From a virus (Duplodnaviria > Caudoviricetes), in the IMG/VR virus record IMGVR_UViG_3300021400_001327, positions 1 to 64,000 of that record: DNA of 64,000 nt. The stretch is one strand, 5' to 3'. The notes beneath the pieces were generated by a model, which was not told the DNA's origin, ran no database searches, and was given only the letters and a program-made list of their open reading frames with translations. Below are positions 8,401 through 63,856 of this stretch, piece by piece. The position numbers were made by a program, and so were the translations under genes. The first letter of the stretch is position 1; every line of letters starts with the position of its first letter.

Positions 8401-11400
8401 GGTCGAAGATGTCATACTGTTTTGTGTCCTTATTATATTTTGCCGTCTCTGTCCTGCCCATCGCCCTGAGTGTTGACTCAATAACATCAACAGAACCTGC
8501 TGTGCTTATTCCGCTAAATACGGTCTGAAGCATGCCAGCCAAATCATACTCTTCGCCGTCAACGGTAAACTTACCATTTTCGTTAATGCCAAGAGCTTTG
8601 TTGATGCCGAGGTCTGTCAGCGATTTCTGCCACGCGGCGAGTGCACTGTTTCCAAAGTCGGTACCGCTATCTGCCATCGCCTGAGCCAAACCGTCACCAA
8701 TCGGCTTCGCTTGTCCATCGGCAAGAATGATATTACCGTTAGACATATCGAGAGTGATTTTGCCGCCAGCAATGGTTTCCAGCGCGGCGGTCATTTTTGT
8801 GGCGTTGTCTCTCTCTGTTGTGATATAGTCACCGAACACGCCGGAGATAGCGGCAGCAAGGCTTTCTACTGGATTGCCGTTAACTGTCCACTGGCCATTA
8901 TCGTAGCCCATCGCGTTTTCAATACCCTTGCTTGCCGCGAGAGCATTGAAAGCCTCTACCATCGTTGATGCCTTTTGCGCGGTTTCGTTCCACATTTCGG
9001 CGACGGCGTCAATATTTTGCTCGTAACCGTCCTTCTTTCCAACGATATTACCGTTGGTGTCATAAATACGGTACCTGCCGTCATCGTCGAGCTTCAGCCT
9101 TGTCTTCAGCCCAGCCTGCGCGGCCTCTTTGTTGATTTGTATGACTTGTTTTTCAGCCTCGGTAACAATGTTTCCGTACTTCTCAGTCAGTCCATACAAA
9201 TAGTTCTGCACGTTCTCCAGCCCGACGACGGCGTTCCCGCTCGCGTCAGTAACAGGCGTACCATCATCGTAAACCAGCCGATGCTGTCCATCGCTATACG
9301 CGATTCGAGGTTTCCTCTCACCCTCTGGCATATTCAGACTCGCGATTAAAGCCGCGAGAGACATGAGCGCCGCCGTGTTGGCGTTAGTGGCCGACGTCAG
9401 GTCTGATGTTGAAGCCACGATTTGGCTGTTCATCAGGGTGGCGGCATCAATATTCTGCTCACCGGCCTTGCCCTGATAGTCATACCATGCTTTAATCAAG
9501 CCAGCCATGTCACCTTCGCCGCTGTTGTACTTCGCAACAGCTTCCTTGAAGGCGTTACTGCTCTTTACAAACTCTGTGTAGTCAGGCGCCTGCGCCTGTT
9601 CTTCGAGCGTCGGAGACTTGAGCTTGTACTTCTTACTTTCGTCAGCGATAAACTCATTGAGCTCGCCGAACATATGCTCGACCAGTTCAGAACTGATTCC
9701 CATCAGCCGCCCGATTTCTTCAGATGTGCGCTCGCCATTCAGTGTTCCATTCTTGTTCAGGATGCCAAGCTTAATAGCGTCCTCTTGGAAGTTCCTTGCG
9801 CCGTAGCCGGTGTCTTCGCTTTTCCCGGGAGCAGACTTAGTCAGGTAACGAGCCAGCAGCTTCCTCTGCTCTTCGCTCCCGTAATAGTTCCCACCAGCGC
9901 CAAGCAGGTATTCCTGTGCGGCCTTGTATTCAAGATTGCCGACACGGCCAGACTTATAGCCCTCCTCGAGTGCCTTGTATGCCTCGAGCGCTTCGTCGTA
10001 GTCGTCACCCTCCTGAGGTCCGCCCTTCGCCATCTGCCATTTGGAGTAAGCGGAGGTCGCGTCCTTGATTTGCGCAGCGAGACGATTATACAGGTCAATC
10101 TCCTGATTGATGAGGGTCATATTCTTTGTGATGTCAGCAATGCTTTCTTTCGCGAGCTTGAGCTGTTCCTCGCGGGTCTTACCAGCGACATCGGCAACGT
10201 TCTCGTTGCTGTACTTTGTGTACTCAGCAAGTGCATCCTGAAGCTTCTTGGCCTGCTGGACATACTCAGACTGCTTGCTGATCATATCAGCGTACATCTT
10301 CTCAGACGCGTCGTTCAGCTTCTTGACGACTTCTTTATTGAATGTGTCCTGATTAAACCAGATGGTCCCATGCGAGCTCTCGACTGCTTTCAGGAAATCG
10401 TAATCCCCCATGTCCACCAGAGACTGGTAGTCCTCTTCGCTGATGCCGCGAGTGCCGTAGCCGGTGTTTTTCCTGATGGTCGCGCCGGTCTGCCTGAAGC
10501 CAAGCAGGTCGGTGATTGTCTTAGACAACCCGGACGCCGTTGTCGTGCTGAGTTCGGGTGTGCCAGCAACATACAGTTCCTGCATCAGGCCAATGAAGTT
10601 TTCGATGTCAACATCGGCAGCTTTCAACTGAGCCCTGAATTTATCAAATTTCGCGTCATTCAGTACGTCCTCTGTGATTTTCACAGACTTCGCCATCTCA
10701 GTGATTTTATCATAGGTCGCCGCAAAGCCGCTGTCTGTCTTCCGAAGCTCGAGTAGTACTCTGTTGCTGTGAATGTCTGGGATGACGGTCGTGCCGATGG
10801 CGTCCCTGAACTCCCGCATGCGGGTATAAAGCTCGGTTGTCGTTTCTCCGCGAAGCTCCATCTGCTCCATACGGTCGTTCAGCGACTGATATTCCGTTAT
10901 CAGCTGTGCTTTGAGTTTCGCCGCAGACGTCCTTGTCGCTTCGCTGATATCTGCATAATTCTGATACACCATATCTGCGCTCAGACCAAGGAAGCGCATC
11001 TCATCACCGCTCGCGGCTTTGTTCTGCCAGTATGTGATTTGATCAGCGGCCTGATTCTGCATATCTCGCAGATAATTGAACATGGCAAGAGAGCCCTTGA
11101 TGTCGTTTCCGACAAAACCCTTCTCCATGTATTTGTTCGTCTGGTCAACAACCTCATCGACAGCGTTGAGCATATGCTCACTCATGACTGCGCTCATTTC
11201 CCTCTCGTCGAGTTCATAGAACGAGGCCATGTAGTCGTTAAGTTCTTCTTTTGTATCCTTTACATACTGTTCGCCGTCCGTCGTCGTGCCGAGATTAGAC
11301 AGCAGTGCTGGCAGCGACATGTTCATCTCATACTGCTTTTCCCACGCGGCCTTGTTCAGGTCATATGCAGTGTTGCCGCGCTCGGCCTCAAGCTGGCGGG

Positions 11401-14400
11401 CGATCATCAACTGTGTGCGAAGCTCTTCGGTCTGCTGTCTGAGGTCGTTCTTCGTCTGCTCGTCTGTGAAGTTCAGCGGTCCCTTGTCGACCAACGCCTG
11501 ATATTGTGCTTCGACATTGGCAAGCTCCTGTTCAAGAGACGCGACCTCATCCTTGGATTCCTTCCAAGACGCAGTGGCATCGTCTGCCGCTTGTGTAGCA
11601 ATCTGTTCAGCATTAGCCGCGTTGTTCCACGCTTCGCCGATTTTGCCAAGAGCCCACATGACAGCTGAAATAGCCGCCATCGCCCCGAGGTTGGCAAGCA
11701 ATCCTTTGAACACGCCGCCAAGCGCTTTGATTTTCATGCCAGCAACAGTGGCGCCGTCACCGACCTGAATCAAACCCTTGCTATATTTCAGAGCGAACTC
11801 GGTCGCTCCATTCATTGTATAGTTCGCACCACCCATCGACTCCTGCATTGCAGAGATAGCTTTCTGAGTGGCCACCGTTTTATCGAGCGTCTGTCCGTAG
11901 AACTTATTGTACTGCTCGACAAAATTGCCGTCTACTTTTCCAGAGCTTTTTGAGCCGAACGGGAGCAGTGATGCAAACCCTGTTAAGGCATTGCCGCCAC
12001 CGAGCTTGGCCAACCCAATCGTTCCAAGCGCACCGAACGCGGGACCGATTGCCCCGATTTTGCTGATGAGACTATCGAGCGCATTCAGGATATTGGCGCC
12101 GCCGCCATAGAACATTTTGATCATGTCGCTGTTGACGACCGTCTGCGAGAGGTTTTCCCACGACGCCGTCAACTGAGCCTGCTTGGCCGCGATAGAGTCG
12201 AGCCAGCGGGCGTGTACTTCTTCCATCGTGCCAGCAGAGTTCTCTGATGTCTTAAGGATCTCCTCTGCACGGCTCATGTTATTGAGCAACGCGGCTACTT
12301 GGTTCGATCTGACTTTACCGGCGAGCAGTTCAAGCAACGCGCTCTGCTTGATGTCCGTCATGTCGTTCCAGACTTTGGAGATACCAAGCATAATGTCATA
12401 CAGGTTCTTGTATGTGTCCTCATCCTGCATGATGTCAAAGCCGCCTTTGCCGTCAATATTCGTCAGCGCGGCGACCTGTGCGCGGAGTTTAGAAGTCGAC
12501 TCGGCCATATTTGAAGTGTCTTCTCCGGCCTCTTCTACATTTTTGTTACTCCATCCTTCTGGACGGGGGTGGGTCATTTCTGCCCACCTCTACGATTTCA
12601 TGTTGTTATATTCGTAGATCAGACCATACCTTCATCTCATGGAGATGTGTGGCATACGCATAGCTGTCACCAGCTACGCTGTGGTCGTTACGGGATTCTT
12701 GTATGAATAATTGATAAATACAAGCCTTACCCTCGGAGTTGCCCTCTTCAGGGTTTTCTCCGATTTGAGCCACATGTTTACCCGACTGTCACCAGTCGGG
12801 GGAGCAAGAAGTTTACTCTGTTTTTGCGCCACGGATACGCATAGACATCGTCCTAATAGCGTTACCGGCGCTACTCGCGTCACGCGTGACTTCCGTGATG
12901 GCCGTGATCATAGCCGTCGCCTGGTCAAGGTCGACTCCAGTCAGGTTCAGTGCGCTGGCAGAACGCTGAAGACCAGCCGCGATATCAGACGCCGTTACAG
13001 CATACGCGTTAGCTACGGCGGTCATCTTGTCGCTAACAGCTTCGGCATCGCCGACATCCAGTCCATCAAAACCACGGATGATAGCAATCAACGCGTCCGA
13101 CGCATCGTTCACGCTTTGGAAGTTACCGGTGTTCGCGAACTTCGTGGTGACTGTACCGAGCTCTTGGCTTTCAGCCAGCGAGTAGCCCATGCGGCCATAC
13201 TCGGTAGCGGTGTTGATAAGGTCTGCCACAGACGAGCCGATGGCCACAGCCGTCTTGCCGCTCTGTTTCTGGAAGCGCTCATACGCCGCCGCAGACTCGT
13301 CAGTAACTTTGCGGAGCTCAGTCATCGCCGTATCGATCTGGGTGACGTAGCCAGCCATCTTCCTGACGGTGCCCATTACCCTCTGCACAGCCATGAACGC
13401 AGAGCCAACACCGAGCACACGAGACGCGAGCTTAGACAGCTTCCCGTCATACACGCCGACCAACGCACCGCCAGACTCAAACGACTCGTTCAGCGCCTTG
13501 ACTTGGTTCTGCATGGTCGCGAACGACTCTTTCGCGGCTTCAAGGTTGCCGCCCCGGTACTGTGCTTCGTAATCTCGACGCATCTCCTGATACTGCTTGT
13601 CAAGAGCGAGTTGCGCAGGGCTCCACTTTCTACGGTCACCATTCTTGCTATTGATGGCATTGACCTGCTCTTCAAGACCTTTAGCCTGTTCGCGCAGTTT
13701 GCCAAATGCGTCAATGGTCGATATTTCCTTAAGCCTCGCCTCACACTGTTCGAGCGCCGCGTTCAGTGCCTTCAGGTTAGCTTCGCTCTGATCGGCCTGA
13801 TATGCTGAGTAAGCCCCCTCAAGCCTGTTTTTTATGGCTGTACTCTCAACCCTGTCTCCGTCTTCCCGCTCGTGTTCAAACCCGAGTAGGCCGTAGTTTT
13901 TGTCGCCTCTGACTTTCTGGTACTGCTGGACGGCTTCGACGTGCGCTCTCGCTTCATCTGAGATTTGTCCAAGCGTGGACAATTGCTGGTTAAACTCAGC
14001 CAGCCCGTTCGGCGCCCGGAGGTCAATAGCATTCAGGCTGGCCAACGCATCCCTAAGCTCCCGAATCTTCTGGAGCTTTGATGAGTCGACATCGAGCGAG
14101 TCCATCCAACCGTTCAGTGTATCATTGACATTGTTACGCTTGGTGTTTGCCCGGAAGATGTCCTGATCAATGGTCCGCTGGCCACGCATGCGCTTGATTT
14201 CTTCACCGATGCGAGCCTGAAGCTGTGTTACTGAGCCACGGTCATCGACGTTCGCGGTCTGGAAGGCGGCGAGCATATTATCGATCACAGTCGTGTCGAG
14301 CGTATGTCCCATCTTCTGATAGGCTTCGCGCAGGCCGTTGACCTGATTAACGTAGCCTTCATAGGCAGACGCACGTCTGGCTTCCAGTGTATCGTGGGTA

Positions 14401-17400
14401 TGCTCGGCATTATTGTAATTAGCGTCGGCTTTCTCGAACTCCTTCTGGGCTTCAGCCGCCGCTTTGATTTGCGCTGTCAGGTTAGCAAAGGCGTCAGCGC
14501 GGTCGCTCAGAGAACTATCATCCTTGAGCCCCGTTACCTGATTGATAGCGGCCTCAAGGTCGCTCCTTTGCTTCGCTACCATCGGGCTGTCTGTGCTCAT
14601 GCGGGACAACAGGTCGTTGGCCTCAACAAGCTGTTTATCTTCTTTGTCCCTGCGCTTCGCAGTATCCAGTAGTCCCTGAAGCCCTCTCATCTGCGTGATG
14701 CGGGATTCAAGGTCGCCGGTGCCCTTGAAACGAGACAGGGCATCGACCACTTTACGCAGGTAATCTGGCAGTTTCGGGGACGACATGCCGCCGTACGGCT
14801 GTGCCATCGTGGCAACCTGATTCCTGATGTTTTCAGCCTGTTTGTTCTGACCGGGCACCATCCTATACTGTCTGCGGTTCTGTTTGCCGAGCTTCTCGTT
14901 ACTCTGCTGGCGGCTTCTCCACTTCGGATACTTCACGTCGAGGTCATCGCGCATCGTCGCCATGTTTTCTTCGATTTCCCGCATGGCCGCATTGCGCTCA
15001 TCAGCGCTCTGCGCTTTGCGGTATCTTGCGATGGCCTTTCTCGCGGCGTCGAACTCCGGCGGCAGTCCGCCAGACCCACCGTTCATGGCGTTATATTTGT
15101 TTTTATACTGTCCCATCGTGACAGTGCTAATGCGGTTGACCTTGCGGTTCTCTTTTGCCAGACGGGTCTGTTCTTTCTGGGCTTTGTTCTGCTCTACCTG
15201 AACGCGATGTTGGTCACGGTATGCAGATGTCTGCTCACGATAAGAACGGGTAACAGCGTTCATGGCCTTTGCCATAGCGTTGTATGCGTCGACTCTGACC
15301 TGTGGGTTATCTTTGGCTGCCTGACTCTGGAAATCCTGATACGCCTTATCGAAATCACCGAAAAGCGAAGAACGACCAGCGCTATCGAACGTTTCATCTA
15401 TGCCGATTGCTCTGAACTGATTGATGAACAGTTTTCTCTGGGAAAGCATGTCCTCAACATATGTGTCCATCTTCTCGACAGCACTGCTCGCCCATTTCTT
15501 CTGCATCTGTTTATTCAGGGCGCCAACACTGATTTCTAAATCTTTTACGGCGCTTTTGGCTTCTTGCAGGGCGTTTACGTCTTCGACGTTAATAAGGTCT
15601 ATCTTCCCAGCGTCATCGACTGTGGCAATTTGCATCCACTGCTTAAGTAACTCGTTCTTGTTTGGATCGCCCTGCATGACCGGCAGTTCGTACATAGCCT
15701 TCATCTTGTTAACAAGAGCTAACCTTTGCCGCTCATACTCCCTTTGGAAAGAGTCGAGCTTGCTTTTGTTAGCCATTGTGGCGATGTTGTTGTATAGTGT
15801 AGAATACTCTATATTTCCATCGTCGCCTACATTTGCGTCAAACCTGTACTGTGCGCGAACCTGTTCGCCAGACCCATACTTTTTATCGGCACCAGAGATA
15901 TTGATGCCGCGAAGTATACCGTTGGCCCCAAACAAACCAGTAATGGTTTTCTCTATAGCGCCGCCATTGTCGCCCAGAGAATCAAAAATTCTCTGAATCT
16001 CTCCTCCAACCTCACCAAGATTCAGAGAATTCAAAACTGTTTTTAGTTGTTCGAGAGATTCAAAATACCTAATCGTTCCACCGGGTGGTAAGTCATCTCC
16101 GCCGCCGCCAGACCCGCCACCGGGTCCGCGTCCGCCGCCCCCAACGCCGCTCATCAACTGCTTGTGCTCATCGTTGGCTTTGTTCTTTTTGTCGATTTGT
16201 TCCTGAAGCTTGCCCGCGTTGCGCTGACTTTCCTGTAAGTCCTTCTGGGCAGCCTGTTCGCTCTTCTTCGCGTCTGCGGCTTCCTTCTTTGCGGTCTCGG
16301 CTTTCTGCTTCTCTTGATTGAATTTCGTTTCCGCCTTCTCAGCCTTCTTCTCCGCCTGCTCTACCTGCTTCTTCAGTCTCGCGTTTTCCTTCTGAAGGTC
16401 AGAGTTTTGCTTCGACAGGTCTTTATCTTTCTGCTTGTTCTCGCTGGCCTGCTTCTGCGCTTCCGCGTTTTTCTGCTCGAGATTAGCGACCTTCTTCTCT
16501 GCATTCTGCGCCCGCTTTTCAGCTTGCGCAACCTTCCGCTCTGCTTCCTGTCTGGCTTTGTCGCTATCTTTGGCCTGCTTCTGCGCTTCATCGAGTTTAG
16601 CCTGCGTGTCCTGATCGGTTGAGGTTTTGCCTTTTTTGCCGCTACCTTTCTTGCCGCCGCCAGAGCCGTCTTCGTTCTGCCTTGTGCTCTGTTTCTTTTG
16701 TTCTTGCTTTTGCGCGGCCTGCTTTTGTGCGTTAGCCAACTGAGCTTTTAGACTGGCAATTTCTTCGTCTTTCGCGGCAGACTCTTTGCGGGCTTGCTGA
16801 GCTTCCTGTTGGGCGTGAGCAACATCGGCTTTCGCCTTAACAGCCTCCTCTTGTGCCTTTTGCGCTTCACGCGTAGCGCGGTTTTTGGCCTGTGATTCAG
16901 CAAGTTTATCGGCGTCTTCCTTATCATATTTTGCTATATCGCTATACGCCCTTTCTATAGAATTGACAAGGCTTTCTACTTGGGATGAAAAACTGCCGAT
17001 ATCTTCAATCGCAGAGGCGGCATCACCACCGCGTAAATTCTTTATAGCTTGCCACTTATAAATATTGGCATACTCCACATTGTCGTAAATATTGGCAATA
17101 GACGCGTTGTCTCTGTGCTTTCTATAGGTTGTTCTGTCGATTGCGCCGAGAGCGTCAGTCATTTTGATTCTCTGAGCGGCGATGGCCGCATACGGGTTTG
17201 CCGCGATTTCTGCTCTTCTCTTAATATCGCTGGGATTGTTCCATATTGTTCCCTTGCCGTACGGCTTCTCGAGCGCTTCAAGAGTCTTTCTGATATCGCC
17301 GAATTCCTTCAGTGTTTGTCCATAATTGCTCATCTGAGAAGACAACTGGTCGAGCGCACTGACAAGCCTGTCTATACCTTTGTAGTTGGCATCTCCTTTT

Positions 17401-17648
17401 TCGTTATCGCCAAACCACGATTCATGGACTCTACCCCAGCCGTAGTAACGAAACTGGTCGCCGTTATTGCCGTCGCTTTTTTCATTAACTGTTTGATTGA
17501 TTGTTATGTTTGTGACGCCGCCGGACGCATTTCCACCCCTGCCATTATTTCCAAGCGCTGAATCGATCCGATCTAATATCTGGTTGAACTGCGCACCGGT
17601 TATCCCCGAATTCGGTATCTTTCCACCAATATTCACTTTTCTTGCCAT
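2420..17648 (-). CDS. Giant tail tape measure protein, spliced (exons 17648-12815 and 12537-2420; ~4,983 aa)
   Basis: TP901-type TMP motifs (IDTAMTELRKVT, ANAYAVTASDIAAGLQRSASAL, LLELLAGKVRSNQVAALL). Removing 12538-12814 gives ...MRIRGAKTE-L-EEAGEDT in frame. Confidence 0.9.
12538..12814 (-). ncRNA. Group I intron (277 nt, no homing endonuclease ORF) in the tape measure gene
   Basis: 5' exon ends in U and pairs GAGU/GCUC (P1, U-G). P4 UCGGAG/CUCCGA; R CGUAACGACCAC and S AAGGUAUGGUCU (P7 GACCA/UGGUC); ends in G. Splicing restores the frame. Confidence 0.9.
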
Positions 17649-33904: not shown

Positions 33905-34448
33905 GCTCCATCGCCTCCGTCATTGCCCTGATATCGTACCGCTCGTTGACCTTTAGTAACCGCGTCGGTATCTTGTAGCCCATAAGTCTCGCGTCATCAT
34001 GGTTGATAGACTTTTTGTTTAGCGCATCGGTGTAGGTGATAAAGGCTGCGATGGGTATACACCACGTCTCTGCCGCGTTCCTGAAGTTGATGACAATACT
34101 TGGGTAAACACCCTTGAAGACCGCCGCCTCCTGCAATTCCTTTATCTGATGCTTCTTGATTTCAAAAGTGTGCTTTTTTCCGTCGTGCTCGAAGTCCTCG
34201 CGCCAAAACGTGATAGACATAGCTGTTGACTTGAGCTCGACGCAGTGCAGACCTGTTCCCGTATATATCAAACAGTCGAACGGGTTGGTCGGCGAATACT
34301 TGGATGCGCCGCCAGTCCACCCGACGGCTGGGTCTTTCAGTCTCAAATAATAGAAGTCGTCGGGGACGGACTTCTTGAAGTTCTGTTCAAATACTTTGCC
34401 TGTATTCACACAAGCCCATCTCCTCTCATGCGAAAAGGAGGACTGCAT
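33891..34448 (-). CDS. recU: Holliday junction resolvase, RecU-like (likely start GTG ~34409)
   Basis: NTGKVFEQNFKKS, NPFDCLIY, VELKST, IKKHQIKEL. Confidence 0.8.
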   Translation of the reverse strand: MQSSFSHERRWACVNTGKVFEQNFKKSVPDDFYYLRLKDPAVGWTGGASKYSPTNPFDCLIYTGTGLHCVELKSTAMSITFWREDFEHDGKKHTFEIKKHQIKELQEAAVFKGVYPSIVINFRNAAETWCIPIAAFITYTDALNKKSINHDDARLMGYKIPTRLLKVNERYDIRAMTEAMEHGGR

Positions 34449-55719: not shown

Positions 55720-56054
55720 TTCTTTCCGGCCTCCTCGGCTGCGGTCGCCGCGATGAAGCGGTCCCTGAACTCGATCGCCGCACGGCTCATGTAGGCAGCG
55801 CCGTCGGTGGCCTCGTCCAAAGTATCGGGCAGGCGTCCGGCCAGAAACTCACCGAATAGCAGGTGAACGCCGAGCGTGATCATGTCCCGCTTATGCCGGT
55901 TGCGGCCAGCGCCCTTGATGGCGACAGCGCAGACCTCTGCCAGGTACTGGTCCCAATGTTTATAGAAGCCGGTCTCAGGCGCGATCTTGAACCCGCAGAC
56001 TTCCATCATTTTCTTCAACACATCATCCATGCTTGATGGCCTCCTCAAATTCAT
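55716..56054 (-). CDS. Hypothetical protein (likely start 56030)
   Basis: GAGGAGG RBS before MDDVLKK. Confidence 0.55.
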   Translation of the reverse strand: MNLRRPSSMDDVLKKMMEVCGFKIAPETGFYKHWDQYLAEVCAVAIKGAGRNRHKRDMITLGVHLLFGEFLAGRLPDTLDEATDGAAYMSRAAIEFRDRFIAATAAEEAGKK

Positions 56055-56406
56055 CCAATAGCTTAGCCGCCCTCAACATCAGTGCGCCGGTGCAATCACC
56101 GAGGGACTTTCCGTGGTCGGTTCCCGTTACGCAGTCACTGCACGTCTCATCGTTATACGGCAGGCTGCACCGCTTGAGAGACATCGACGTCTGTTGTACC
56201 TCGCCGAGAAGGACGGCGTTCTGGATAACCTTCATCTCCTCGATCTCGTGACGATCGCGCTCAAGGGACAAGTCCTTCCTCAGCTGGCTGATCTCGTTCT
56301 CCGCGTCACGCATCCTGTGCGCGTCCGTGATGTGCATAATGACGAGCAGAAGGCATAGCGCCGTAAATAAAAAATAAATGACCCGAAGGTCAGTCTCAAT
56401 GTTCAT
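56023..56406 (-). CDS. Hypothetical membrane-anchored protein
   Basis: MNIETDLR start with GGAGGTG RBS; one TM segment. Confidence 0.55.
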   Translation of the reverse strand: MNIETDLRVIYFLFTALCLLLVIMHITDAHRMRDAENEISQLRKDLSLERDRHEIEEMKVIQNAVLLGEVQQTSMSLKRCSLPYNDETCSDCVTGTDHGKSLGDCTGALMLRAAKLLDEFEEAIKHG

Positions 56407-56656
56407 GGGGCACCTCCAATACTTCTGCCGGTACGCTCCAGCACTCCCATGTGACCCCGTACTCATTCAATGGCAACATGTACCTGTGCTTCGCGCTCTC
56501 GAACAGGTAAACACCGCTATCCTGCATAAGGAAGAACGTTGGCTCCTGGCACCACACTTCGTCTGGGTCACAGCAGGTGATAACGACGAGCTCGTTCTCC
56601 TCCAGACATTTAACGTCGAGGAGAGTCATCTTAGTTATCTTGCTCATCGAACTCAT
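56396..56656 (-). CDS. Hypothetical protein
   Basis: ORF with RBS; YGVTWECW motif. Confidence 0.55.
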   Translation of the reverse strand: MSSMSKITKMTLLDVKCLEENELVVITCCDPDEVWCQEPTFFLMQDSGVYLFESAKHRYMLPLNEYGVTWECWSVPAEVLEVPHEH

Positions 56657-56743
56657 TCCTTCCTCCTGCGCTCACCAGCGCCATACAAAAAATGCCAACC
56701 ATCGCTGACAGGGGAACGATCCAGAACAGATGCCATATACTAA

Positions 56744-57412
56744 TCATTGCTCCACCTTTCTGATCACGTACCGGTGATCCCTGAACTCAGATTCCTTATC
56801 CATCTTCTCAACGCTGCGCACAATAATGTTGCAGTCGCCCTTAGCTGTATTTACGAGCGCGATATCCCCAGGCTTCAGTTTCTCCGCCAGCGCCTTGTCC
56901 GCGTACCACTGGAAGTCCACTGTGTCGGTCGCGTGATGGACGCCGTGCACCACGTACAGATCCCTCTCATCGTCGTGCAAAGCATCGATATGGCAGAGCA
57001 CGTTCCACAGGCTTTGCTGTACCTGCTTCGCCTCAGCGCCGATACGCTCGATTTCGTCCTTGTACCGTTTCATGGTTTCGCCCAAGCCCTCAGCCTTTCG
57101 CTGAAGCTCTAGCTTTCGCGCCATGAGTGCGCTGTACTGGTGCTCCCTCTTCACATGCTCGACAGGCGGAGGCGTGAACTTGATTGAGGCCAGCATCTCC
57201 TCCGGCGTGAGCTCATGCTCGAGCACCCACTGCTTCTTCTTCACGTCCTTGCCGTTGTCTGTTACGACAGCAACATCATACATTTGCCAGGAGTCATCGG
57301 CCATGTCATAATAACCAACGGTCGAATACGGGTCCTTCCTTAACTTCCAGAGCCATTTGCCCTCGCCCGTGTCCTGATTGATAAAATATCCAATGCTTCC
57401 CTGATACATCAA
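56744..57412 (-). CDS. Hypothetical protein with a coiled coil
   Basis: GGGAGG RBS; 222 aa. Confidence 0.6.
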   Translation of the reverse strand: MMYQGSIGYFINQDTGEGKWLWKLRKDPYSTVGYYDMADDSWQMYDVAVVTDNGKDVKKKQWVLEHELTPEEMLASIKFTPPPVEHVKREHQYSALMARKLELQRKAEGLGETMKRYKDEIERIGAEAKQVQQSLWNVLCHIDALHDDERDLYVVHGVHHATDTVDFQWYADKALAEKLKPGDIALVNTAKGDCNIIVRSVEKMDKESEFRDHRYVIRKVEQ

Positions 57413-57507
57413 AACCTCCCGTTATCGTACCAGTCAGATAGTACAGCCATGATTAACACGATACAGAATAAACCGAGAATGATCGTCATGTCCGCTAAGT
57501 CCCCCAC
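57409..57507 (-). CDS. Small hydrophobic peptide (~26-32 aa)
   Basis: AAGGAGGTGA RBS at 57516-57525; ...MTIILGLFCIVLIMAVLSDWYDNGRF. Confidence 0.45.
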   Translation of the reverse strand: MGDLADMTIILGLFCIVLIMAVLSDWYDNGRF

Positions 57508-57605
57508 AATGAAGGTCACCTCCTTTGCGTAAATAAAAAACGGCGAGCCTTCGCGCCCGCTCAGAGATATGTAAAAGGCAGACACCTGGTCTGCCCTGTA
57601 AGAAT

Positions 57606-57634
57606 AATATAACACATCGTGGCCGCTGCGTCAA
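57606..57634 (-). promoter_or_regulatory. SigA-type promoter for the early minus-strand operon
   Basis: TTGACG-17 bp-TATATT with an extended -10 TG. Confidence 0.65.
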
Positions 57635-57659
57635 ATTAGGTTGGCGGCTCCGTTCTATC

Positions 57660-58450
57660 CATTGGATAAACTCTGGATGTATATTTTAAAATCGACGAAT
57701 CTTTTGTAATATCAGATTAATTAAATTATTTTTAATCTGTTTTTTGAAAAATTCTCTATCATTAGTATAGTATATATAATAAGACTAATAATCAGATTAG
57801 TACTCAGTTAGATGAGAACTACTGTACAGTAGAACTCAATCAGTTGAGAACTCCTGTAGATGAGTCCTAATTTTTTAAAAACTAATAAGACCGGTCTTAA
57901 TAGCTTATACTCTCTATGGACATAATGGTATACCATTCTCTCTATGAGGTACATGTAGAATAAGCTATTCTGTAACGATATAATATTATAAGCTTAGATG
58001 CAATATAATATAAACTATTACACTCAATAAACTTAGATGCAATATATAAGCTATTAAGCTCAAGTAACTTAGATACGTCTACTATGATACATAATAATAT
58101 AATCTATGACTTAACGGCTTATATAAGCTATTACCTAACGGCTTATACCAGATGTCACTTAATAGCTTATACTCTCCAGTCTTAAGGGCTTATATCTCAT
58201 AGAGTCCTTGATTCTAACTGCTGATATATTCATTTATAGCCATGAAGCAAATAAATGAATATATCAGCAGAGAGTAATAGAAGAATATAGAGAAGACTGT
58301 CCATAGAGTACATGTAGAGCGTAATAGCTTAGTAACGTATCAAGGACTCGTTACAGAATAGCTTATACCTCTCGGTGCTTATATGCTTACCATTATGTTC
58401 TAATCTCTTAATAGCTTTTAAGATAATGGGTCTCGGCAAAAAATTTTCTT
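57660..58450. repeat. AT-rich noncoding region with iteron-like repeats; putative replication origin
   Basis: AATAGCTTAT/ATAAGCTATT repeated in both orientations; CTTAGAT tandem units; perfect 20-bp inverted repeat at 58218-58270; no ORF. Confidence 0.55.
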
Positions 58451-58584
58451 GGGTCGGATGGCTTCGGGGCGCCGGTGACTGACGGCTGATGACGCAGCGG
58501 CTGGCGATTTATCGCCAGGAAGTTTTGCGGCGGGCGCGTATCTGTATTTTTAATTCTAACAAATCCCTGAACGTCTCCGGCTGG

Positions 58585-58633
58585 ACCCTAACAAGTTATC
58601 GACCTTTACGAAAGAATTGGCTGGCGGTTTGTT
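58585..58633 (-). repeat. Bipartite site, copy B (inverted relative to copy A)
   Basis: Minus strand reads AACAAAcCGCCA-N20-CGATAACTTGTTAGGGT. Confidence 0.7.
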
Positions 58634-58655
58634 AGAATTTAATATACGTGTATTT

Positions 58656-59492
58656 TCACTCGTCGTCGTCAGTGTCGAGCGCGTACTGGTAGCTGAGTTC
58701 CATGCTCTTCACGGCAGTTTTGCCTAGTACAAAATCAGAAACACCGCGCCGGAGACTGCTGGTACGCGGGAGCCGACATCCGATGTAAGCCATCGTGGTC
58801 GTCTGGTTCGCGTGACGAAGCATCAGGGATGTGTCCGCCATAGCGAGCGCCGCGTTCTGGATGTCTCGGGACGTAGAGGCTATCGTGTTGGCGATGGTGG
58901 CGAAGGTCTTACGCATCGTGTGTGTAGAGGTCCTGAGGTATGGAGCCGCTGCGCGTAAGCCGGTACGCAATAACCGGTTGGCGGCGTCGGTCGCCATCGG
59001 GGTTTTGCCCTTGCCTTTGTTCGAGGCGAAGAGGTAGTTGTCCTGGGTGAACGGCATGGTCCAGCGGCACTCGTTGATGTAGAGGCTGACGTACTGCTTG
59101 ATGGCGTCCGTGATCAGCATCTCGTCGTCCTGAGAGCAGGTGCGCTTGCCGGTCTTGATCTCGATGATGTCGATAGCCCGCCTGAACGTGATGGGGTTCG
59201 TGGAGATCAGAAGGTCGGATACCTTGAGAGCGCAGAGGTCAGAAATACGAAGGCCGGTACATACACCAGTCACGAACATAGCGGCTTCCCTGAACTTGCG
59301 CTGGGAGAGGAAGTGATCGATGACCGCCTTTACCTGAGCATAGGACTCAAGGGGCTGCGCGGCCTTGATGGCAGAGACGCCCTTCGCCAACTGCTTCTGG
59401 CGCGGGGTAAGATTTTCGTCCTCTACGGTATAAGCCAGAGAGGTCATGTTCACAGAGTCCGCGCCGGGGAACGCAATGATCTTACCGCTCAT
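58656..59492 (-). CDS. Second tyrosine recombinase (essentially the catalytic domain only)
   Basis: TGLRISDL, EIKTGK, HTMRKTF, LRH...TMAYIG. Confidence 0.88.
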   Translation of the reverse strand: MSGKIIAFPGADSVNMTSLAYTVEDENLTPRQKQLAKGVSAIKAAQPLESYAQVKAVIDHFLSQRKFREAAMFVTGVCTGLRISDLCALKVSDLLISTNPITFRRAIDIIEIKTGKRTCSQDDEMLITDAIKQYVSLYINECRWTMPFTQDNYLFASNKGKGKTPMATDAANRLLRTGLRAAAPYLRTSTHTMRKTFATIANTIASTSRDIQNAALAMADTSLMLRHANQTTTMAYIGCRLPRTSSLRRGVSDFVLGKTAVKSMELSYQYALDTDDDE

Positions 59493-59549
59493 AATAGCCT
59501 CCGATTAGATGTAGGATCTGGTACGGTGGACCTGACTTCCACCGAAATC

Positions 59550-59578
59550 AGTGTACCACAAAATGTCGGTTTTGTCAA
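59550..59578 (-). promoter_or_regulatory. SigA-type promoter of the recombinase, overlapped by an AAAATGTCGGT direct repeat
   Basis: TTGACA-17 bp-TACACT with TG; repeat copies at 59560 and 59582. Confidence 0.75.
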
Positions 59579-60171
59579 GAGAAAATGTCGGTCTCCCGGG
59601 CGTTTTCGCGAGGTCGATGTCGGCCTGTGCGATTGAATGCGGGGATGGCGGAAGTGGTCTGGCGACGATGAGGAGCTTGGTGTGCAGCGGCTACGGAAGA
59701 TCAGGCGGCGCCCACACGTTAAAAGAAGGGGACGTAAAGGCCACTACATCATCATGGAAAATGTTTTCCAATCCCCTTTCCCTGTGACTCCCTGGTCCCA
59801 TTTCTTTTGCTTTTCCCAGAGCTCAGAAATGGGACCAGACTACTGGGAGGGAAGGGGATAAGCCGGGAGGCGCAGAGGGTGGGTATACACTCTTTTCGGT
59901 GGTGATTGGTGTCGCGTTTGGGGTCGCAGGGGGAGGAGGTGGTTTTGGGGGTTGAGAGGGGGATTTTGGTGGATGGGAAATAAATTTTGGGGGTTGGGAG
60001 GAGAGGCAGCTTGGCCGGGCCAGGCTGGTCGCTCGGTGGGCTGAGATGTAAACGGGGCGGGGGATGTCGGGTTTCTGTCGAAAACCGATATTCTGCGGCG
60101 GTCGCGGTCGCGGCATAAAAAGAGCAGGGGCGGCGGCGCGTCCCTGCTTCTGTTGCGGTGGTGGTCAATGG

Positions 60172-61008
60172 TTAGTCGGTCACGAGTTCCAGCTTTCCGG
60201 CACTGGTTACTTTCAGCAGCCCAGCCTTTACAAGGACTTTTACAAGGTAGGGCTTGACGGATGAGGGATTTTTCACTTTTTCCCCGTGTCCCTCCACCAT
60301 CCTTTTCATATCCTGCGCCTGCTTCGCTGTGCACTTCCCCATTCGTTCCCGCTCTGCGATGGCTTCCAGCGCTCTCTCGGTCCAGTCCATGACGGCGCTT
60401 GTCTCGGCAAGGCGGCGTTCTGCGGCACTGGTGGCGCTTCGCTCGTGTACGTGCTCGACAGGCGTTCCCTCTTTCGCGCTTCTTGTGACAATCCGCTTCT
60501 CAAGCCTGCCGCAAGCCCTACACGCTTCGATGAATGCACTGTGATGGTCGGCGTAATAATCACCCTCAAGCTCGGCAGGTATCATGACGGTGTACTGTGC
60601 CGCCTCCGCTTCTGCTTCACTGATAGCGAGAGCGGCGGTCTGTATCATGTCGGCATAATGACGAATGTAGACGTTCTTGTCTGCGGTCGCGCCGCGCCTG
60701 ATAGCACCCTTGATTTTCGCGGCTACCACACGCCGCGCAAGGTCATATACAGGGCCTGAAAAAACGGCGCGTCCTGCGGCGGCTTCCTCTGCTCGGTGAT
60801 TGATGGGGGCTGTGGTGGTGGCCTTCCTATTAGTGGCGGCGGCGGTGGTGGTCGTGACGGCGGCGGCGGTGGGGATGGTGTAGGCGTTCATGCGCTCTAA
60901 CACCCTGATGATACGAGCGGTGAAGCTATGCGGTGTGCGGGGGTCTCTGATAGCCTTAACGGCGGCGGCGATACGGGCGGCGGCGGTGGTGGTGTTGGTG
61001 GTTTTCAT
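60172..61008 (-). CDS. Hypothetical protein with a Thr/Ala-rich N-terminus; weak sigma-region-2-like segment
   Basis: GAAAGGA RBS before MKTTNTT; HYADMIQTAALAI. Confidence 0.5.
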   Translation of the reverse strand: MKTTNTTTAAARIAAAVKAIRDPRTPHSFTARIIRVLERMNAYTIPTAAAVTTTTAAATNRKATTTAPINHRAEEAAAGRAVFSGPVYDLARRVVAAKIKGAIRRGATADKNVYIRHYADMIQTAALAISEAEAEAAQYTVMIPAELEGDYYADHHSAFIEACRACGRLEKRIVTRSAKEGTPVEHVHERSATSAAERRLAETSAVMDWTERALEAIAERERMGKCTAKQAQDMKRMVEGHGEKVKNPSSVKPYLVKVLVKAGLLKVTSAGKLELVTD

Positions 61009-61269
61009 AGTGGTGTTCCTTTCTGCCCTGTGGGCTGTCGGTGTAGTGTGTGTCTTACTGAATGACACTAAAGTAAGAATTCGACAAAAATTTCTGAATT
61101 CCTGCAAAAAATCTCGATTGCCATAATTTTGACATATTTCCTGGGCGCTCTCGGGTGCATGGTGGGTGTAATCGTTCATCGATGATGAATCGATGATGAT
61201 TCATCAATCAGTGTTTAATAATGATTGATGGTATCCAAACAAGTTGTATCTGTTCCATGCCAACCGTTG

Positions 61270-61692
61270 GATTCATCGGGCGCGAAAGTGCCCGAGATGG
61301 TACGAGCGGCGGACCTGGACGGGCGCTTGCCCGCTGGATAGCTGGAAGTCCAGACGTTGAGTCCCAGCGCAAAAGCTCGATTTGCAGGATGAAGAGCAAA
61401 CACAGAAACGACGCTGCTTAGCAGAAAGCGCGACGTGCGAAAGCACAGCGGCTTGCCTGATAGCCTTCGGCGATTCAGGATTTCCGGCAAAGCCTTCGGC
61501 GATGTCGGCTTGCTTAGTGCTGGGCTCACCCACCGCATTTGCATCTCTGAGCGCATGGTGCCGAGACTGTGACTGACAAAGCAATCAACAGCCGCAAGGC
61601 TGATTTTGCCCACGGTGCAAGCCCGTGGGCCTTATGCCAGCGCTGGCCGCATGAAGCTGGCGCGGTAATAAAATCGCTGGTTAAACCAGCAG
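61270..61692 (+). ncRNA. Candidate large structured noncoding RNA
   Basis: Dense GNRA/UUCG-capped hairpins on the + strand and a long-range helix; no credible ORF. Confidence 0.65.
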
Positions 61693-61704
61693 AAAGAGGT
61701 ACCT

Positions 61705-62631
61705 ATGTATAAGCAGAATGATTACACCGAGAAGAAGTCCGCTGCTCAGGCCAAGCTCGACGCCTACATCGAGAAGGTCAACGCTGACAAGCCGCAGGCC
61801 AACGAAATCACCGGCGCGAAGGAAGCGCTCGACAAGGCCGTCGCCGATTACAACACGCTCGTCGTGTCCGACGCCTACGAGCGCCTGTTCCTGCTGACCG
61901 CCGACGACGCTGAGGTCGGCTCCCTGCCTGATCCAGCCGCACACCTGAAGGCCACTGACCCGCTGGGGCGTGCCTTCCGTGGCTATCGCTTCTCCGGCCT
62001 GATGAAGGCCAGCATAAAGCGCGACAAGCAGACCGACCGTGTAGACACAGGCAAGACGTCGCTGGTCTGTGTCGCCGACGATGACGCCGACGAGAAAAAG
62101 CAGGTCTACCACCTGCGCGACATCGCCGCGAAGTGGGACGAGCTCCAGACTGCCGCAGGCGTGACCCAGAAGGCCGAGCTCATGGCTTCGCCAATGTGGG
62201 GCTCGCTGGTCCAGAAGGTCCGGCGGCTGTTCATCGCTCGCTCGCTGTCGCTGGGCGGCTACGCCATCCCTTCCGGCGTGACCAATGACTATATCGTCTA
62301 CACCGCTGACGGGCAGGCCGTGGCTGTCGCTGACCTGACCGCTGAGCAAAAGAAGGCGCTCGACGACAAGGTCACCGTCAAGGCGCTCAAGGCCGAGCTT
62401 CAGGCGCTCGTTGACGCTGTCTACTTCGACGCGACTGGCCGCAAGAACGGCTCCAACAAGTACCGTGTCAACGAGAAGGACGTGCACTGGCTCGTGGACA
62501 ACGCTCATCGGTTTGATGAGCGCTCCCACAAGACCGTCCTGATGAGTGACGCGAAGGCGTACGAGTTGGCCTTCTGCATGGTCGCCCACATCGTGACCGG
62601 CGAGTCCTACAGCGCTCTTCTGGGGGAGTAA
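61705..62631 (+). CDS. Hypothetical protein, probably highly expressed
   Basis: GAGGT RBS; strong codon bias; 308 aa. Confidence 0.8.
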   Translation: MYKQNDYTEKKSAAQAKLDAYIEKVNADKPQANEITGAKEALDKAVADYNTLVVSDAYERLFLLTADDAEVGSLPDPAAHLKATDPLGRAFRGYRFSGLMKASIKRDKQTDRVDTGKTSLVCVADDDADEKKQVYHLRDIAAKWDELQTAAGVTQKAELMASPMWGSLVQKVRRLFIARSLSLGGYAIPSGVTNDYIVYTADGQAVAVADLTAEQKKALDDKVTVKALKAELQALVDAVYFDATGRKNGSNKYRVNEKDVHWLVDNAHRFDERSHKTVLMSDAKAYELAFCMVAHIVTGESYSALLGE

Positions 62632-62740
62632 TTCCCCCCTTTGCCCCGCATGGCTCAAGCCTCCACGCGGCGCGGGGTGGGTAACGCCGATTGAGTCAGA
62701 CCTTGTCAACTGAGCGAGAACGTGATATATTTATACAGGG

Positions 62741-62971
62741 GTGGTGATATTGGCAAAAGAAAAAGATCGGCACAAGAATCCGAACTATAAGAACGAGTAT
62801 GCCCGCGCAAACTATGAACGTGTTACGTTTATGTACAAACATGACCAACGTTATAAAGAGCGCATCAAAGCGCAGGCTGAATACGATGGTATGTCCATCA
62901 ACGCCTGGATTCTTCGCGCAATTGATACACAGCTTCGCCGCGAGTCCGGCGAGCTTACAGGAGAGGAGTGA
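62741..62971 (+). CDS. Ribbon-helix-helix (Arc/HicB-like) DNA-binding protein
   Basis: YERVTF...KERIKAQAEYDGMSINAWILRAIDTQL. Confidence 0.7.
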   Translation: MVILAKEKDRHKNPNYKNEYARANYERVTFMYKHDQRYKERIKAQAEYDGMSINAWILRAIDTQLRRESGELTGEE

Positions 62972-63670: not shown

Positions 63671-63731
63671 AGCTGATATCACAAGCCTGTAAGTAAAACC
63701 GCATAACGACGCAATGAACCGACCACCAGCA

Positions 63732-63753
63732 ACCGCCTACGGGCGGTTTTTTT
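63732..63753 (+). terminator. Intrinsic terminator
   Basis: ACCGCC-TACG-GGCGGT followed by a T-run. Confidence 0.8.
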
Positions 63754-63856
63754 ATGCCCAAAAATCCTGCACGAGGGATTGATGAGCGAGCGTTTTTTTG
63801 CGACCACTGGTTAGTCGGAACCAGAAATGAAAACGGAATCAGAAAGGAGACCAAAA

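Follow-up and report, generated by a model that had tools for sequence, protein, structure and literature searches.

The first rightward gene of a large phage, whose complete 107-kb genome has direct terminal repeats, codes for a 308-aa protein. The stretch in front of this gene raises the question of whether it acts as DNA, as coding sequence or as RNA and, if as RNA, of which kind and to what end. An earlier note, made from the letters of the window (the whole stretch of 64,000 nucleotides analysed here), had proposed an unannotated structured RNA on the + strand at this place.

Location, strand and general architecture

The hairpins on which that proposal was based, at 61276–61295, 61320–61333, 61435–61446, 61456–61479, 61484–61508, 61589–61602, 61608–61630 and 61676–61690, are all present. 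The segment 61264–61704 folds on the + strand with a minimum free energy (MFE) of −182 kcal/mol (z = −3.54), and none of 100 shuffled sequences was as stable, whereas the − strand of the same segment has a z-score of −1.78. In the well-aligned helices of the homologue alignment, G·U cells outnumber A·C cells (37 versus 12), which favours the + strand, as had been supposed from the sequence. A comparison with Rfam at gathering thresholds returned no family over the 64-kb window, in agreement with the description of the RNA as unannotated. Very probably, then, 61264–61704 represents a real and new structured RNA.

The RNA is a multi-domain leader of about 440 nt with 13 helices, and its architecture is bipartite. 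The 5′ domain, which varies between lineages, spans P1 to P8 and has an H-type pseudoknot as well as twin hairpins that are closed into a junction; it is followed by a 3′ cassette with strong sequence conservation. The cassette is made up of the hairpins P9 to P12 and ends 3 nt 5′ of the Shine-Dalgarno sequence; the P10 loop, of 9 nt, is like one of twister-sister, and the loop of P11 is GCAYGA. P3 (61334–61353), P5 with its pseudoknot (61369–61385 with 61394–61397) and P11 (61637–61665) are absent from the earlier list of hairpins.

Homologous loci and covariation

Related metagenomic phages carry this architecture too: it was recognised in 13 to 15 of their loci, where compensatory changes are abundant. 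Covariation, which the earlier note had named as a check, was found in an alignment of 13 homologous upstream regions on which a named structure of 60 pairs was scored. In this structure 86.9% of cells are paired, versus 30–39% when the 3′ partners are slid, and 28 of the 60 pairs are altered on both sides, versus 4–11 in the slid controls; none of 500 shuffles equalled it on any measure. When only the 3′ domain is scored and a more distant homologue is included, 95.5% of cells are paired and half of the pairs (11/22) are compensatory. The nucleotide identity of the 3′ cassette is 82–85% across loci whose proteins are 55–74% identical, and the remaining spacer is barely alignable. The RNA lies directly 5′ of the 308-aa gene, and the two are conserved together. 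In 14 loci no gene was called in the 680–1100-nt upstream spacer. The cassette lies 12–15 nt from the start codon in every locus, with P12 adjoining the Shine-Dalgarno sequence, and no + strand intrinsic terminator was found between the RNA and the 308-aa ORF.

It is extremely improbable that the region is not RNA and that conserved DNA sites (operators, an origin or attP) or an unannotated ORF account for its conservation. The region does lie in a divergent control region, with a tyrosine recombinase gene and repeat arrays nearby, and mechanical ORFs of 45–132 aa overlap it, but the compensatory changes preserve Watson-Crick and G·U pairs on one strand only, the indel lengths are not multiples of three and none of the assemblies has a gene call at this place. 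Moreover, a GC-skew turn and an AT-rich origin-like stretch are situated about 3 kb to the left. An origin of replication at the RNA was rejected, the GC-skew minimum being near 57–58 kb and not at the RNA.

Searching IMG/VR with two degenerate DNA patterns and metagenomes with one gave true matches only in L017, L022, L024 and L027, the other matches being due to chance; scans at the protein level, run against IMG/VR, GTDB genomes and INPHARED phages, yielded one contig or nothing. The family seems to be small, since these scans brought so few homologues. No prophage or host was found in the IMG/VR, GTDB, INPHARED and metagenome scans.

Structure of the 5′ domain

All elements of the RNA described below are on the + strand. 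The tentative helix P1 (61264–61269 with 61307–61312) encloses a GAAA hairpin (61276–61295) and the heptamer AUGGUAC (61297–61303). The P1 partners vary by lineage (CCGUUG/CGGCGG, GCGUUG/CGGCGC and GCGCGG/CCGCGC). The heptamer is invariant in the loci covering the region, except for AAGGUAC in L014, and is missing from the more distant L065 and L066. An upstream ORF starting from this heptamer was considered and dropped by eye, as it has no Shine-Dalgarno sequence and its length is not conserved. The short hairpin P2 (61320–61333) has the loop GCUU in the window and GCAA in most relatives; a hairpin occupies this position in 11 of 12 loci, with four distinct stem sequences, and its low score in the pair counts results from poor alignment of P2 by MAFFT. 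P3 (61334–61353) has the conserved loop UAGCUGGNNG; 98.2% of its cells are paired and four of its five pairs have changed on both sides.

The joining segment J3/4 (GACRUUGA) and segment A (CCCAGC) occupy 61354–61368 and were assessed by sequence and by per-sequence duplex energies. Segment A has two candidate partners, the 3′ strand 61519–61527 and the GCUGG of the P3 loop. The former corresponds to the long-range helix of the earlier note. The complementarity (61359–61368 with 61519–61527) is present; the 3′ strand, GCUGGGCUC, pairs with segment A at −18.0 kcal/mol in the window, and no other option is as stable in the subgroup to which the window belongs. The pairing is not conserved in L014. 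In the other subgroup, the equivalent of 61519–61527 sits in a better-supported local closure helix, which competes with the long-range helix.

An H-type pseudoknot is formed at 61369–61397. Its helix P5 (61369–61373 with 61381–61385) is 81.7% paired with two compensatory pairs, and the loop GCUC (61375–61378) pairs with GAGC (61394–61397). This second helix is 88.6% paired, and three of its four pairs are compensatory (GCUC/GAGC, GCC/GGC, CCUC/GGGG and UCACU/AGUGA). The variable region that follows (61414–61453) contains a lineage-specific hairpin (61414–61424) and P6 (61427–61453) with the GAAA-capped P6b (61435–61446). In the other subgroup it is replaced by a long closure helix of 13 pairs, which is 93.6% paired with four compensatory pairs.

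The twin hairpins P7 (61456–61479) and P8 (61484–61508) are each tipped by GCC-UUC-GGC over an internal loop, and their helices (helices 6–9 of the alignment) are 77–100% paired. The distant relatives keep the twins, with matching loops of different sequence (CCC-UUG-GGG in L065 and GUAG-CAUC-UAC in L066). A reading of the P7 internal loop as a K-turn was dropped by eye, the sequence rules being unmet. The inter-domain linker (61528–61588) is poorly conserved in the alignment.

Structure of the 3′ cassette and the ribosome-binding site

P9 (61589–61602) has a variable tetraloop (GCAA, GAAA, UAAG or UCCU) and is 95.4% paired, one pair being C-G in 6 loci and U-A in 5–6. P10 (61608–61630), with the 9-nt loop GYGCAAGCC, is 98.9% paired and has four compensatory pairs. 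The long hairpin P11 (61637–61665) has about 11 bp, an invariant bulged A at 61639, a 1×1 mismatch and the apical loop GCAYGA, and is followed by GGUAA; it is 93–95% paired with 3–5 compensatory pairs. The last part of the leader (61676–61704) consists of P12 (61676–61690), the Shine-Dalgarno sequence AAAGAGG (61693–61699), which is strong, and the spacer to the start codon at 61705. The P12 stem has six sequences among the loci, including GCUGGU/ACCAGC, CGCCC/GGGCG, GCUC/GAGC, GCCUG/CAGGC and AGGCC/GGCCU.

No sequestration of the Shine-Dalgarno sequence was seen in the consensus fold, and no conserved alternative, switch-like pairing was found. The MFE structure pairs GGUAC with GUACC as a candidate clamp between the 5′ and 3′ ends. 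The clamp complementarity amounts to 7–11 bp in L010 and L011, the only two of 10 scorable loci where it exceeds shuffles; the value for L009, which derives from a different motif copy, was not counted among the successes. The 5′ strand of the clamp never varies.

Likeness to twister-sister and to processing sites

Among Rfam matches at E ≤ 10 over 60950–61800, only that to the twister-sister family (RF02681) deserves mention. It covers 61587–61653 with 28.5 bits (E = 6e-4), the gathering score being 34. The Rfam comparison suggested in the earlier note has thus given no family at gathering and one sub-threshold match, which covariation shows to reflect a shared loop module and not membership. 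No RF02681 match at E ≤ 0.05 was obtained in 8 homologous loci, and no homologue outscores the window; an Rfam comparison at E ≤ 10 that took in the region and these 8 loci likewise brought up only this sub-threshold match. The P10 loop of the window, GUGCAAGCC, is identical at 9 of 9 positions to SL4, the consensus P4 loop of twister-sister (GUGCAAGYC), and 12 of 13 relatives have GYGCAAGCC there; it is this one shared 9-nt loop that brings about the match. The likeness thus consists of a GC-rich hairpin bearing the same SL4 loop, with the flanking CCGCAAGGC and GCGCU resembling the consensus. In the ribozyme, the SL4 loop forms a GNRA-like platform that takes an intercalating adenine of another strand, and the internal loop L1 consists of GCAAG opposite GCUCAU, with the C-A cleavage step inside (PMC5660989). 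Unlike twister-sister, the RNA described here is devoid of L1 and of the enclosing P1 and P2, and covariation supports three separate hairpins instead. When the sequences are forced into the twister-sister model, its P1 and P2 are 63.5% and 71.8% paired, with key columns broken in 6–7 of 13 sequences, while the rival hairpins P9 and P11 are 95% paired. The GCAAG of the window is the strand of a variable tetraloop (GCAA, GAAA, UAAG, UUUUA or UCCU), and in the model alignment the cleavage strand, the 3′ one, has lost its CAU. The P1-L1-P2 core was therefore rejected on pair counts and covariation.

With these data, it is very unlikely that the 3′ cassette is a diverged twister-sister or another self-cleaving or RNase-processed site, even if the sub-threshold score and the SL4 identity would fit such a role. 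The early genes of phage T7 are separated by RNase III processing hairpins, and P11-like irregular hairpins likewise recur here in early intergenic spacers. The likeness extends to the internal loops, to the repetition 5′ of successive early ORFs and to the place of the first hairpin, some 40 nt 5′ of the earliest gene of the series. However, the hairpins of the present phages are short for RNase III, carry a conserved apical hexaloop and, in the leader, are part of a much larger fold; their cleavage is hypothetical.

Promoter-like zone, terminators and cassette paralogues

A promoter-like zone on the + strand (61129–61174), conserved among 10 homologous upstream regions, begins with TTGACA (61129–61134) and includes a conserved box (61150–61174) ending in GGTGTAATCG; a sigma-70 consensus scan of this zone returned no full promoter. 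Between the box and the structured RNA are AT-rich, operator-like inverted and direct repeats (61176–61232), namely TCATCGATGA and TGAATC..GATTCA. Other repeat arrays are found at the same site in L010 (GGTTCC), L065 (GAAC/GTTC) and L066 (a long GAATCGGTTCT array).

The spacer between genes 1 and 2 contains a degenerate paralogue of the P10-P11 part of the cassette (62640–62684, + strand), recognisable by UUUG, the stem CCCCGC/GCGGGG, CAAGCC and GGGUAA. It is a weak R1 match, and the paralogous cassettes within the window are weak in general (E = 0.059 for this one and 0.84). Clear cassette paralogues are present in the same spacer of L065 (E ~1e-6 to 1e-8), L066 and L010, and the second copy of L065 retains the full order of a P11-like hairpin, UAA, a P12-like hairpin, a Shine-Dalgarno sequence and AUG. 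Further along the + strand, a conserved intrinsic terminator (63731–63755) is followed by a hairpin with a GCACGA loop (63763–63780), the stem of which covaries in L010 (UUGCC/GGCAA); five relatives have weak R1 matches here. Canonical terminators are located 3′ of gene 1 in L005 and L012, and a conserved TG-extended −10 promoter-like site is located 5′ of gene 2. To judge by these signals, the RNA and the 308-aa gene look like a self-contained transcription unit.

The 308-aa protein

The product of gene 1 (61705–62631, + strand), which is always 3′ of the RNA, has 16 close homologues and 28 by profile. It has no match in Pfam or PHROG, and with no domain in these collections it is outside the IscB/TnpB, IS110 and RT families. 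The AlphaFold2 model has a pLDDT of 86.5. No fold match was found by Foldseek in the PDB, a wide VIA-align search gave only Z ≤ 6.6, limited to the N-terminal helical hairpin, and the ESM Atlas search returned nothing usable. The only two matches in BFVD are uncharacterised Siphoviridae proteins. The protein is mildly acidic (pI 5.9), its invariant acidic residues include D56, E59, D237, D242, E257 and D259, and no RNA-binding, nuclease or recombinase domain is recognisable in it.

Possible function of the leader

The explanation preferred here, which is offered tentatively, is that the RNA is a cis-acting leader for post-transcriptional control, recognised by a shared factor. It would be transcribed with the 308-aa gene as one self-contained unit, and its effect, in cis, would be post-transcriptional. 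A trans-acting factor, either a protein (of the phage or of the host) or the machinery of translation or RNA decay, would dock on the conserved single-stranded loops of the 3′ cassette. This factor would govern the downstream ORF by way of translation initiation, processing or stability, and would also act through the related cassettes 5′ of genes 2 and 4. The large 5′ domain might fold as a compact tertiary body modulating access to the cassette and the ribosome-binding site, and the invariant AUGGUAC near the 5′ end may form pairs with the nucleotides that separate the Shine-Dalgarno sequence from the AUG. The recurrence of the cassette before other early ORFs speaks for a leader. Against the mechanism as outlined, about 440 nt and 13 helices far exceed the needs of known translational operators, the Shine-Dalgarno sequence is free in the consensus fold, the clamp is supported in 2 of 10 loci, the paralogues in the window are weak and the promoter of the leader is a candidate zone only.

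RNAs encoded in the 5′ UTR of their partner protein are known from IscB/omega RNA, IS110/bridge RNA and retron RT/msr-msd. It is unlikely that the present RNA likewise serves the 308-aa protein as scaffold or guide within a ribonucleoprotein (RNP). The two are passed on together as a unit in 15 of 15 loci, including distant homologues with a non-coding upstream region of 1.0–1.1 kb, the RNA is more elaborate than a simple operator would have to be, and the protein is confidently folded, has no recognised fold and retains invariant acidic residues. A cis leader, however, predicts the co-inheritance equally, the 3′ cassette is present before other genes as well, and the mild acidity of the protein and its lack of a recognisable RNA-binding, nuclease or recombinase domain do not suit this role. 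Nor was a hypervariable, guide-like segment that matches other parts of the phage genome found; the leader has only chance-level guide-like matches of 12–15 nt to the rest of it. In a bolder form, for which the chances are modest at best, the leader and the protein would be a new kind of phage RNP, with a scaffold or specificity RNA of about 440 nt and an early effector, or the 3′ cassette would be a new aptamer for a host signal. If P9–P11 were a ligand-binding aptamer, forming a riboswitch with the platform of P12 and the Shine-Dalgarno sequence, it might sense a host or immune metabolite early in infection. This is improbable: the 80-nt three-helix unit has invariant junction and loop nucleotides directly 5′ of the ribosome-binding site, but no riboswitch family matches it, no conserved pairing mutually exclusive with the Shine-Dalgarno sequence or P12 was found, and a metabolite sensor would not usually be confined to so narrow a phylogenetic range.

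The large RNAs conAn2 and canT are cis-acting antiterminators of Gram-positive mobile elements. Quite unlikely, too, is a role of the leader as an RNA of this kind (as HK022 put, EAR, conAn2 or canT), loading onto RNA polymerase for processive read-through of terminators. The RNA comes directly after the early promoter zone and heads the rightward gene arm, conserved intrinsic terminators stand downstream between co-directional genes (promoter-like sites come after them), and the high conservation of the 3′ cassette would suit contact with conserved host machinery. Its size also matches that of conAn2 of pLS20 (260–600 bp) and canT of Tn916 (341–452 nt) (PMC8191782, PMC11658703). The shared traits are those of a non-coding multi-hairpin RNA at the head of a long co-directional array in a mobile element with terminators 3′; likeness in sequence to known antiterminator RNAs, which are themselves poorly conserved between systems, is not apparent. 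Unlike conAn2 and canT, the present RNA is fused to a ribosome-binding site, and gene 1 seems to end its own unit; gene 2 has a promoter-like site, and read-through is therefore not obviously needed. Moreover, the repetition of the cassette beside ribosome-binding sites points to translation or mRNA rather than to polymerase loading, and one GCAYGA hairpin is 3′, not 5′, of a strong terminator. ROOL and GOLLD, one of which the earlier note had thought this RNA might be, are free-standing RNAs, often near tRNAs. The present RNA resembles them in being large, ornate, supported by covariation, phage-borne and not assigned a function. It differs in being a 5′ leader tied to one protein gene in about 15 closely related metagenomic phages. 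No covariance-model match was obtained for ROOL or GOLLD even at E ≤ 10, nor for T-box RNAs, riboswitches or group I and II introns. In keeping with the earlier note, the RNA has no group I or group II signature, and ARAGORN detected no tRNA or tmRNA. It is most improbable that a stand-alone trans-acting RNA of ROOL, GOLLD or OLE type is released from the leader, given the fixed distance of 12–15 nt to the start codon in every locus and the lack of a terminator or obvious processing signal before the ORF.

The RNA offers a defined architecture with a pseudoknot and a cassette repeated before several early genes, and could add a new class to Rfam. Large covariation-supported RNAs without a family are rare, and earlier examples proved to be ribozymes, scaffolds of RNPs or new regulators. 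The RNA stands at the very start of the early programme, beside a protein without a recognised fold, and its role, once worked out, would therefore bear on how a group of large uncultured phages begins infection. The SL4-type loop would be a tertiary module reused outside the twister-sister ribozyme. As to the other conserved loop, genome-wide GCAYGA hairpins with 3-bp stems occur at chance frequency (10 versus 5.7 expected), while the long-stemmed ones are P11, the hairpin at 63763–63780 and one on the − strand at about 34431.

Genome Setting and Locus Organisation

The window comprises the first 64 kb of a virus record that is complete at 107,314 bp and has direct terminal repeats. Between 2.4 and 57 kb, almost every gene is on the − strand and has a structural role (terminase, portal, tail and giant tape-measure-like proteins). 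Two giant − strand ORFs at 2420–17648 (3385 and 1611 aa) contain no Pfam domain, and their PHROG matches, all of partial length, are to 'tape measure' only. The structural genes are followed by a tyrosine recombinase (58656–59492, −), a 279-aa ORF (60172–61011, −), a 693-nt spacer devoid of called genes and a 308-aa ORF (gene 1, 61705–62631, +), which opens the rightward arm. The right two-thirds of the spacer is occupied by the leader RNA (61264–61704, +). In the interval 56000–60000, the cumulative GC skew has its minimum near 57–58 kb, about 3 kb left of the switch in gene orientation, which would fit an origin at that place and not within the leader.

The gene 1 protein has 16 close homologues (41–100% identity), and a profile search yielded 28. 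Metagenome assemblies supplied 14 distinct loci for comparison, and DNA patterns added two contigs, one from IMG/VR and one from a metagenome. The gene order is common to all loci: recombinase (−), an ORF of 270–315 aa (−), a spacer of 680–1100 nt and the gene 1 homologue (+); none of the assemblies has a called gene in this spacer. The segment 61589–61674 aligns by BLASTN at 82–85% identity in loci sharing only 55–74% protein identity, where the remaining spacer is mostly unalignable. The leader was seen in about 15 related metagenomic phages, with one copy in the present genome, and no homologue was found in the INPHARED phages and representative prokaryote genomes searched.

Upstream of the leader, a box CTCGGGTGC..GGGTGTAATCG (61150–61174) is common to most relatives and does not match a sigma-70 promoter. 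Between this promoter-like box and the structured RNA lie arrays of short repeats, inverted or in tandem (61176–61232; TCATCGATGA and GAATC/GATTC). The corresponding arrays in L010, L065 (1500–1560) and L066 (530–650) consist of GGTTCC, of GAAC/GTTC and of an extended GAATCGGTTCT array, respectively. These lineage-specific arrays look like operators or iterons.

Folding, Covariation and Strand

The + strand of 61264–61704 has an MFE of −182 kcal/mol (z = −3.54; none of 100 dinucleotide shuffles folded as well), versus z = −1.78 for the reverse complement. All hairpins listed in the earlier note from inspection of the window were located at the positions given there, but that list had overlooked P3, the pseudoknot and P11. 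Covariation among homologues, proposed there as a check, is strong. RNAalifold, applied to 13 upstream regions, predicted 55 pairs, 26 of them with compensatory change. A structure was then named that has 12 helices and 60 pairs; its cells are 86.9% paired, versus 30–39% in controls with the 3′ partners slid by 1–3 columns, and 28 pairs changed on both sides versus 4–11; none of 500 shuffles matched it on any of five measures. P2 and P6b score low in these counts, and MAFFT misaligns both; inspection of the individual sequences shows a hairpin at either site, with differing stems. R1, a covariance model built on the 3′ domain, also detects the leader of the more distant L065 (53 bits). The 13-sequence alignment based on R1 gives 95.5% paired cells and compensatory change in 11 of 22 pairs, values that lean toward the structure since the alignment was fitted to the model.

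In well-aligned helices, G·U cells outnumber A·C cells (37 versus 12), and GNRA or UUCG capping loops appear on the + strand only. This bears out the + strand preference suggested earlier and indicates that the RNA is read in the direction of gene 1.

Anatomy of the Leader

The 5′ domain begins with a tentative helix P1 (61264–69 with 61307–12) surrounding the GAAA hairpin and the motif AUGGUAC (61297–61303). This motif is identical at all loci covering the region, except for AAGGUAC in L014, and is missing from L065 and L066, which are more distant. P2 (61320–33) and P3 (61334–53), the latter with the conserved loop UAGCUGGNNG, precede P5 (61369–73 with 61381–85), the loop of which, GCUC, pairs with GAGC at 61394–97 as an H-type pseudoknot. 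Both stems of the pseudoknot covary, the loop partners being GCUC/GAGC, GCC/GGC, CCUC/GGGG and UCACU/AGUGA across loci. A variable P6 region separates it from the twin hairpins P7 (61456–79) and P8 (61484–61508), the loops of which match each other in distant relatives and vary by lineage (UUC, UUUG, UUG, CAUC).

The long-range helix of the earlier note (61359–68/61519–27) is energetically the most favourable choice in the window and in the two relatives nearest to it (−15 to −18 kcal/mol), but it is wholly absent from L014. The GCUGG of its 3′ strand belongs, in the other subgroup, to a long local helix by which P7 and P8 are closed into a three-way junction (13 pairs, 93.6% paired and four compensatory pairs in just six sequences). 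The CCCAGC strand on its 5′ side could pair instead with the conserved GCUGG of the P3 loop.

A poorly conserved linker (61528–88) leads to the 3′ cassette. It consists of P9 (61589–61602; variable tetraloop), P10 (61608–30; loop GYGCAAGCC), a CYUUAUG linker, P11 (61637–65; invariant bulged A, 1×1 mismatch and apical loop GCAYGA, followed by GGUAA) and P12 (61676–90), for which six different stem sequences occur. The Shine–Dalgarno sequence AAAGAGG (61693–99) and the AUG at 61705 follow. Read on the − strand, P12 (61675–61691) followed by AUUUUAUUAC scores as terminator-like and could halt leftward antisense transcription.

Comparison with Known RNA Families

The Rfam search found no family at the gathering score anywhere in the 64-kb window. 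The ROOL or GOLLD identity suggested earlier found no match; introns were likewise unmatched, in agreement with the lack of intron signatures noted at that time, as were T-boxes, riboswitches and tRNA-like elements. With the limit relaxed to E ≤ 10, a single noteworthy match appeared, twister-sister at 61587–61653 (28.5 bits, below the cut-off of 34; E = 6e-4), based on a 9/9 identical P10 loop, corresponding to ribozyme SL4, and the strings CCGCAAGGC and GCGCU. In the four-way-junction structure of twister-sister, the conserved residues lie in L1 (GCAAG opposite GCUCAU, with the C–A scissile step) and SL4 (PMC5660989). The L1 5′ strand is conserved in the ribozyme, whereas the corresponding stretch of the leader is a freely varying tetraloop, and the CAU of the 3′ strand GCUCAU is deleted in the alignment to the family model. 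The ribozyme P1/P2 helices are paired in 63.5%/71.8% of cells, with key columns broken in about half of the sequences, whereas P9 and P11, the hairpins that compete with them, reach about 95% and show compensatory changes. No homologue scores higher than the window. The leader therefore lacks the defining catalytic core and is no twister-sister ribozyme. The SL4-type loop seems to be reused in it; in the ribozyme an adenine intercalates into this loop, and a candidate for that part in the leader is the bulged A that is invariant in P11. The leader represents a new RNA family, one more among the large structured RNAs and leaders already known from phages.

Downstream Units and Cassette Copies

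The cassette ends 12–15 nt from the start codon at every locus, and no + strand terminator lies between the RNA and gene 1, which makes the RNA a leader and not a gene in its own right. Canonical intrinsic terminators directly follow gene 1 in L005 and L012, and a conserved TG-extended −10 promoter-like site (62703–62731; TTGTCA-17-TATATT with an upstream TG) precedes gene 2, the next rightward ORF. Gene 1 looks like a transcription unit of its own. The 76-aa gene 2 protein (region 62703–62971) has a weak HicB/ribbon-helix-helix-like C-terminus (E = 0.007, below the cut-off).

The spacer between genes 1 and 2 contains a clear cassette paralogue in L065 (2960–3053), L066 (1945–2010) and L010 (2880–2950), comprising a hairpin with the 9-nt loop GGCSUGAUA, YUAUAUG, a P11-like hairpin with GCAYGA, and GGGUAA; in L065 it continues into a P12-like hairpin, a Shine–Dalgarno sequence and AUG. 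The window carries a degenerate copy at 62640–84 (+). About 2 kb downstream, a strong intrinsic terminator (63731–55, +; CCGCC-UACG-GGCGG and U7), conserved in nine loci between co-directional early genes, is directly followed by a 6-bp hairpin with the P11 loop GCACGA (63763–80, +), the stem of which covaries in L010, and by a second U-run. The 5′ domain is unique to the leader. That the cassette is repeated beside several ribosome-binding sites of early genes suggests a trans-acting factor common to them, as well as a role in translation, stability or processing.

Possible Function

Tentatively, the leader is regarded as a cis-acting element of post-transcriptional control, in which the conserved loops of the 3′ cassette would bind a factor common to several early genes and the 5′ domain would modulate its access to them. 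A possible clamp would pair AUGGUAC with the stretch between the Shine–Dalgarno sequence and AUG; its 5′ strand is invariant, and the pairing amounts to 5 bp in the window MFE and 7–11 bp in L010 and L011, and is weak elsewhere.

Other explanations were considered. A riboswitch (no Rfam family matched), a free ncRNA (the distance to gene 1 is fixed) and a processing or ribozyme site (the twister-sister match is rejected) are very unlikely, and a non-RNA origin of the conserved stretch, with its paired changes in the helices, is most improbable. A ribonucleoprotein formed with the 308-aa protein seems unlikely, even with the strict co-inheritance of RNA and gene 1 and the sheer size of the RNA in its favour. 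The protein itself (pI 5.9) offers no clue to the function: it has no Pfam or PHROG match; its AlphaFold2 model is confident (pLDDT 86.5) and found no match in the PDB with Foldseek, the wide VIA-align search gave only Z ≤ 6.6, over the N-terminal helices alone, and its BFVD relatives are two uncharacterised Siphoviridae proteins. A processive antiterminator of the conAn2 or canT type would suit the size and position of the leader and the terminators lying downstream, but neither the promoter-like site ahead of gene 2 nor the tie of the cassette to ribosome-binding sites seems to fit; it is considered quite unlikely.

On the − strand, a hairpin with the P11 hexaloop (CUUUUC-GCAUGA-GAGGAG, ~34413–34436) immediately precedes the AUG of a structural gene, its 3′ arm GAGGAG being Shine–Dalgarno-like; this may be a coincidence.
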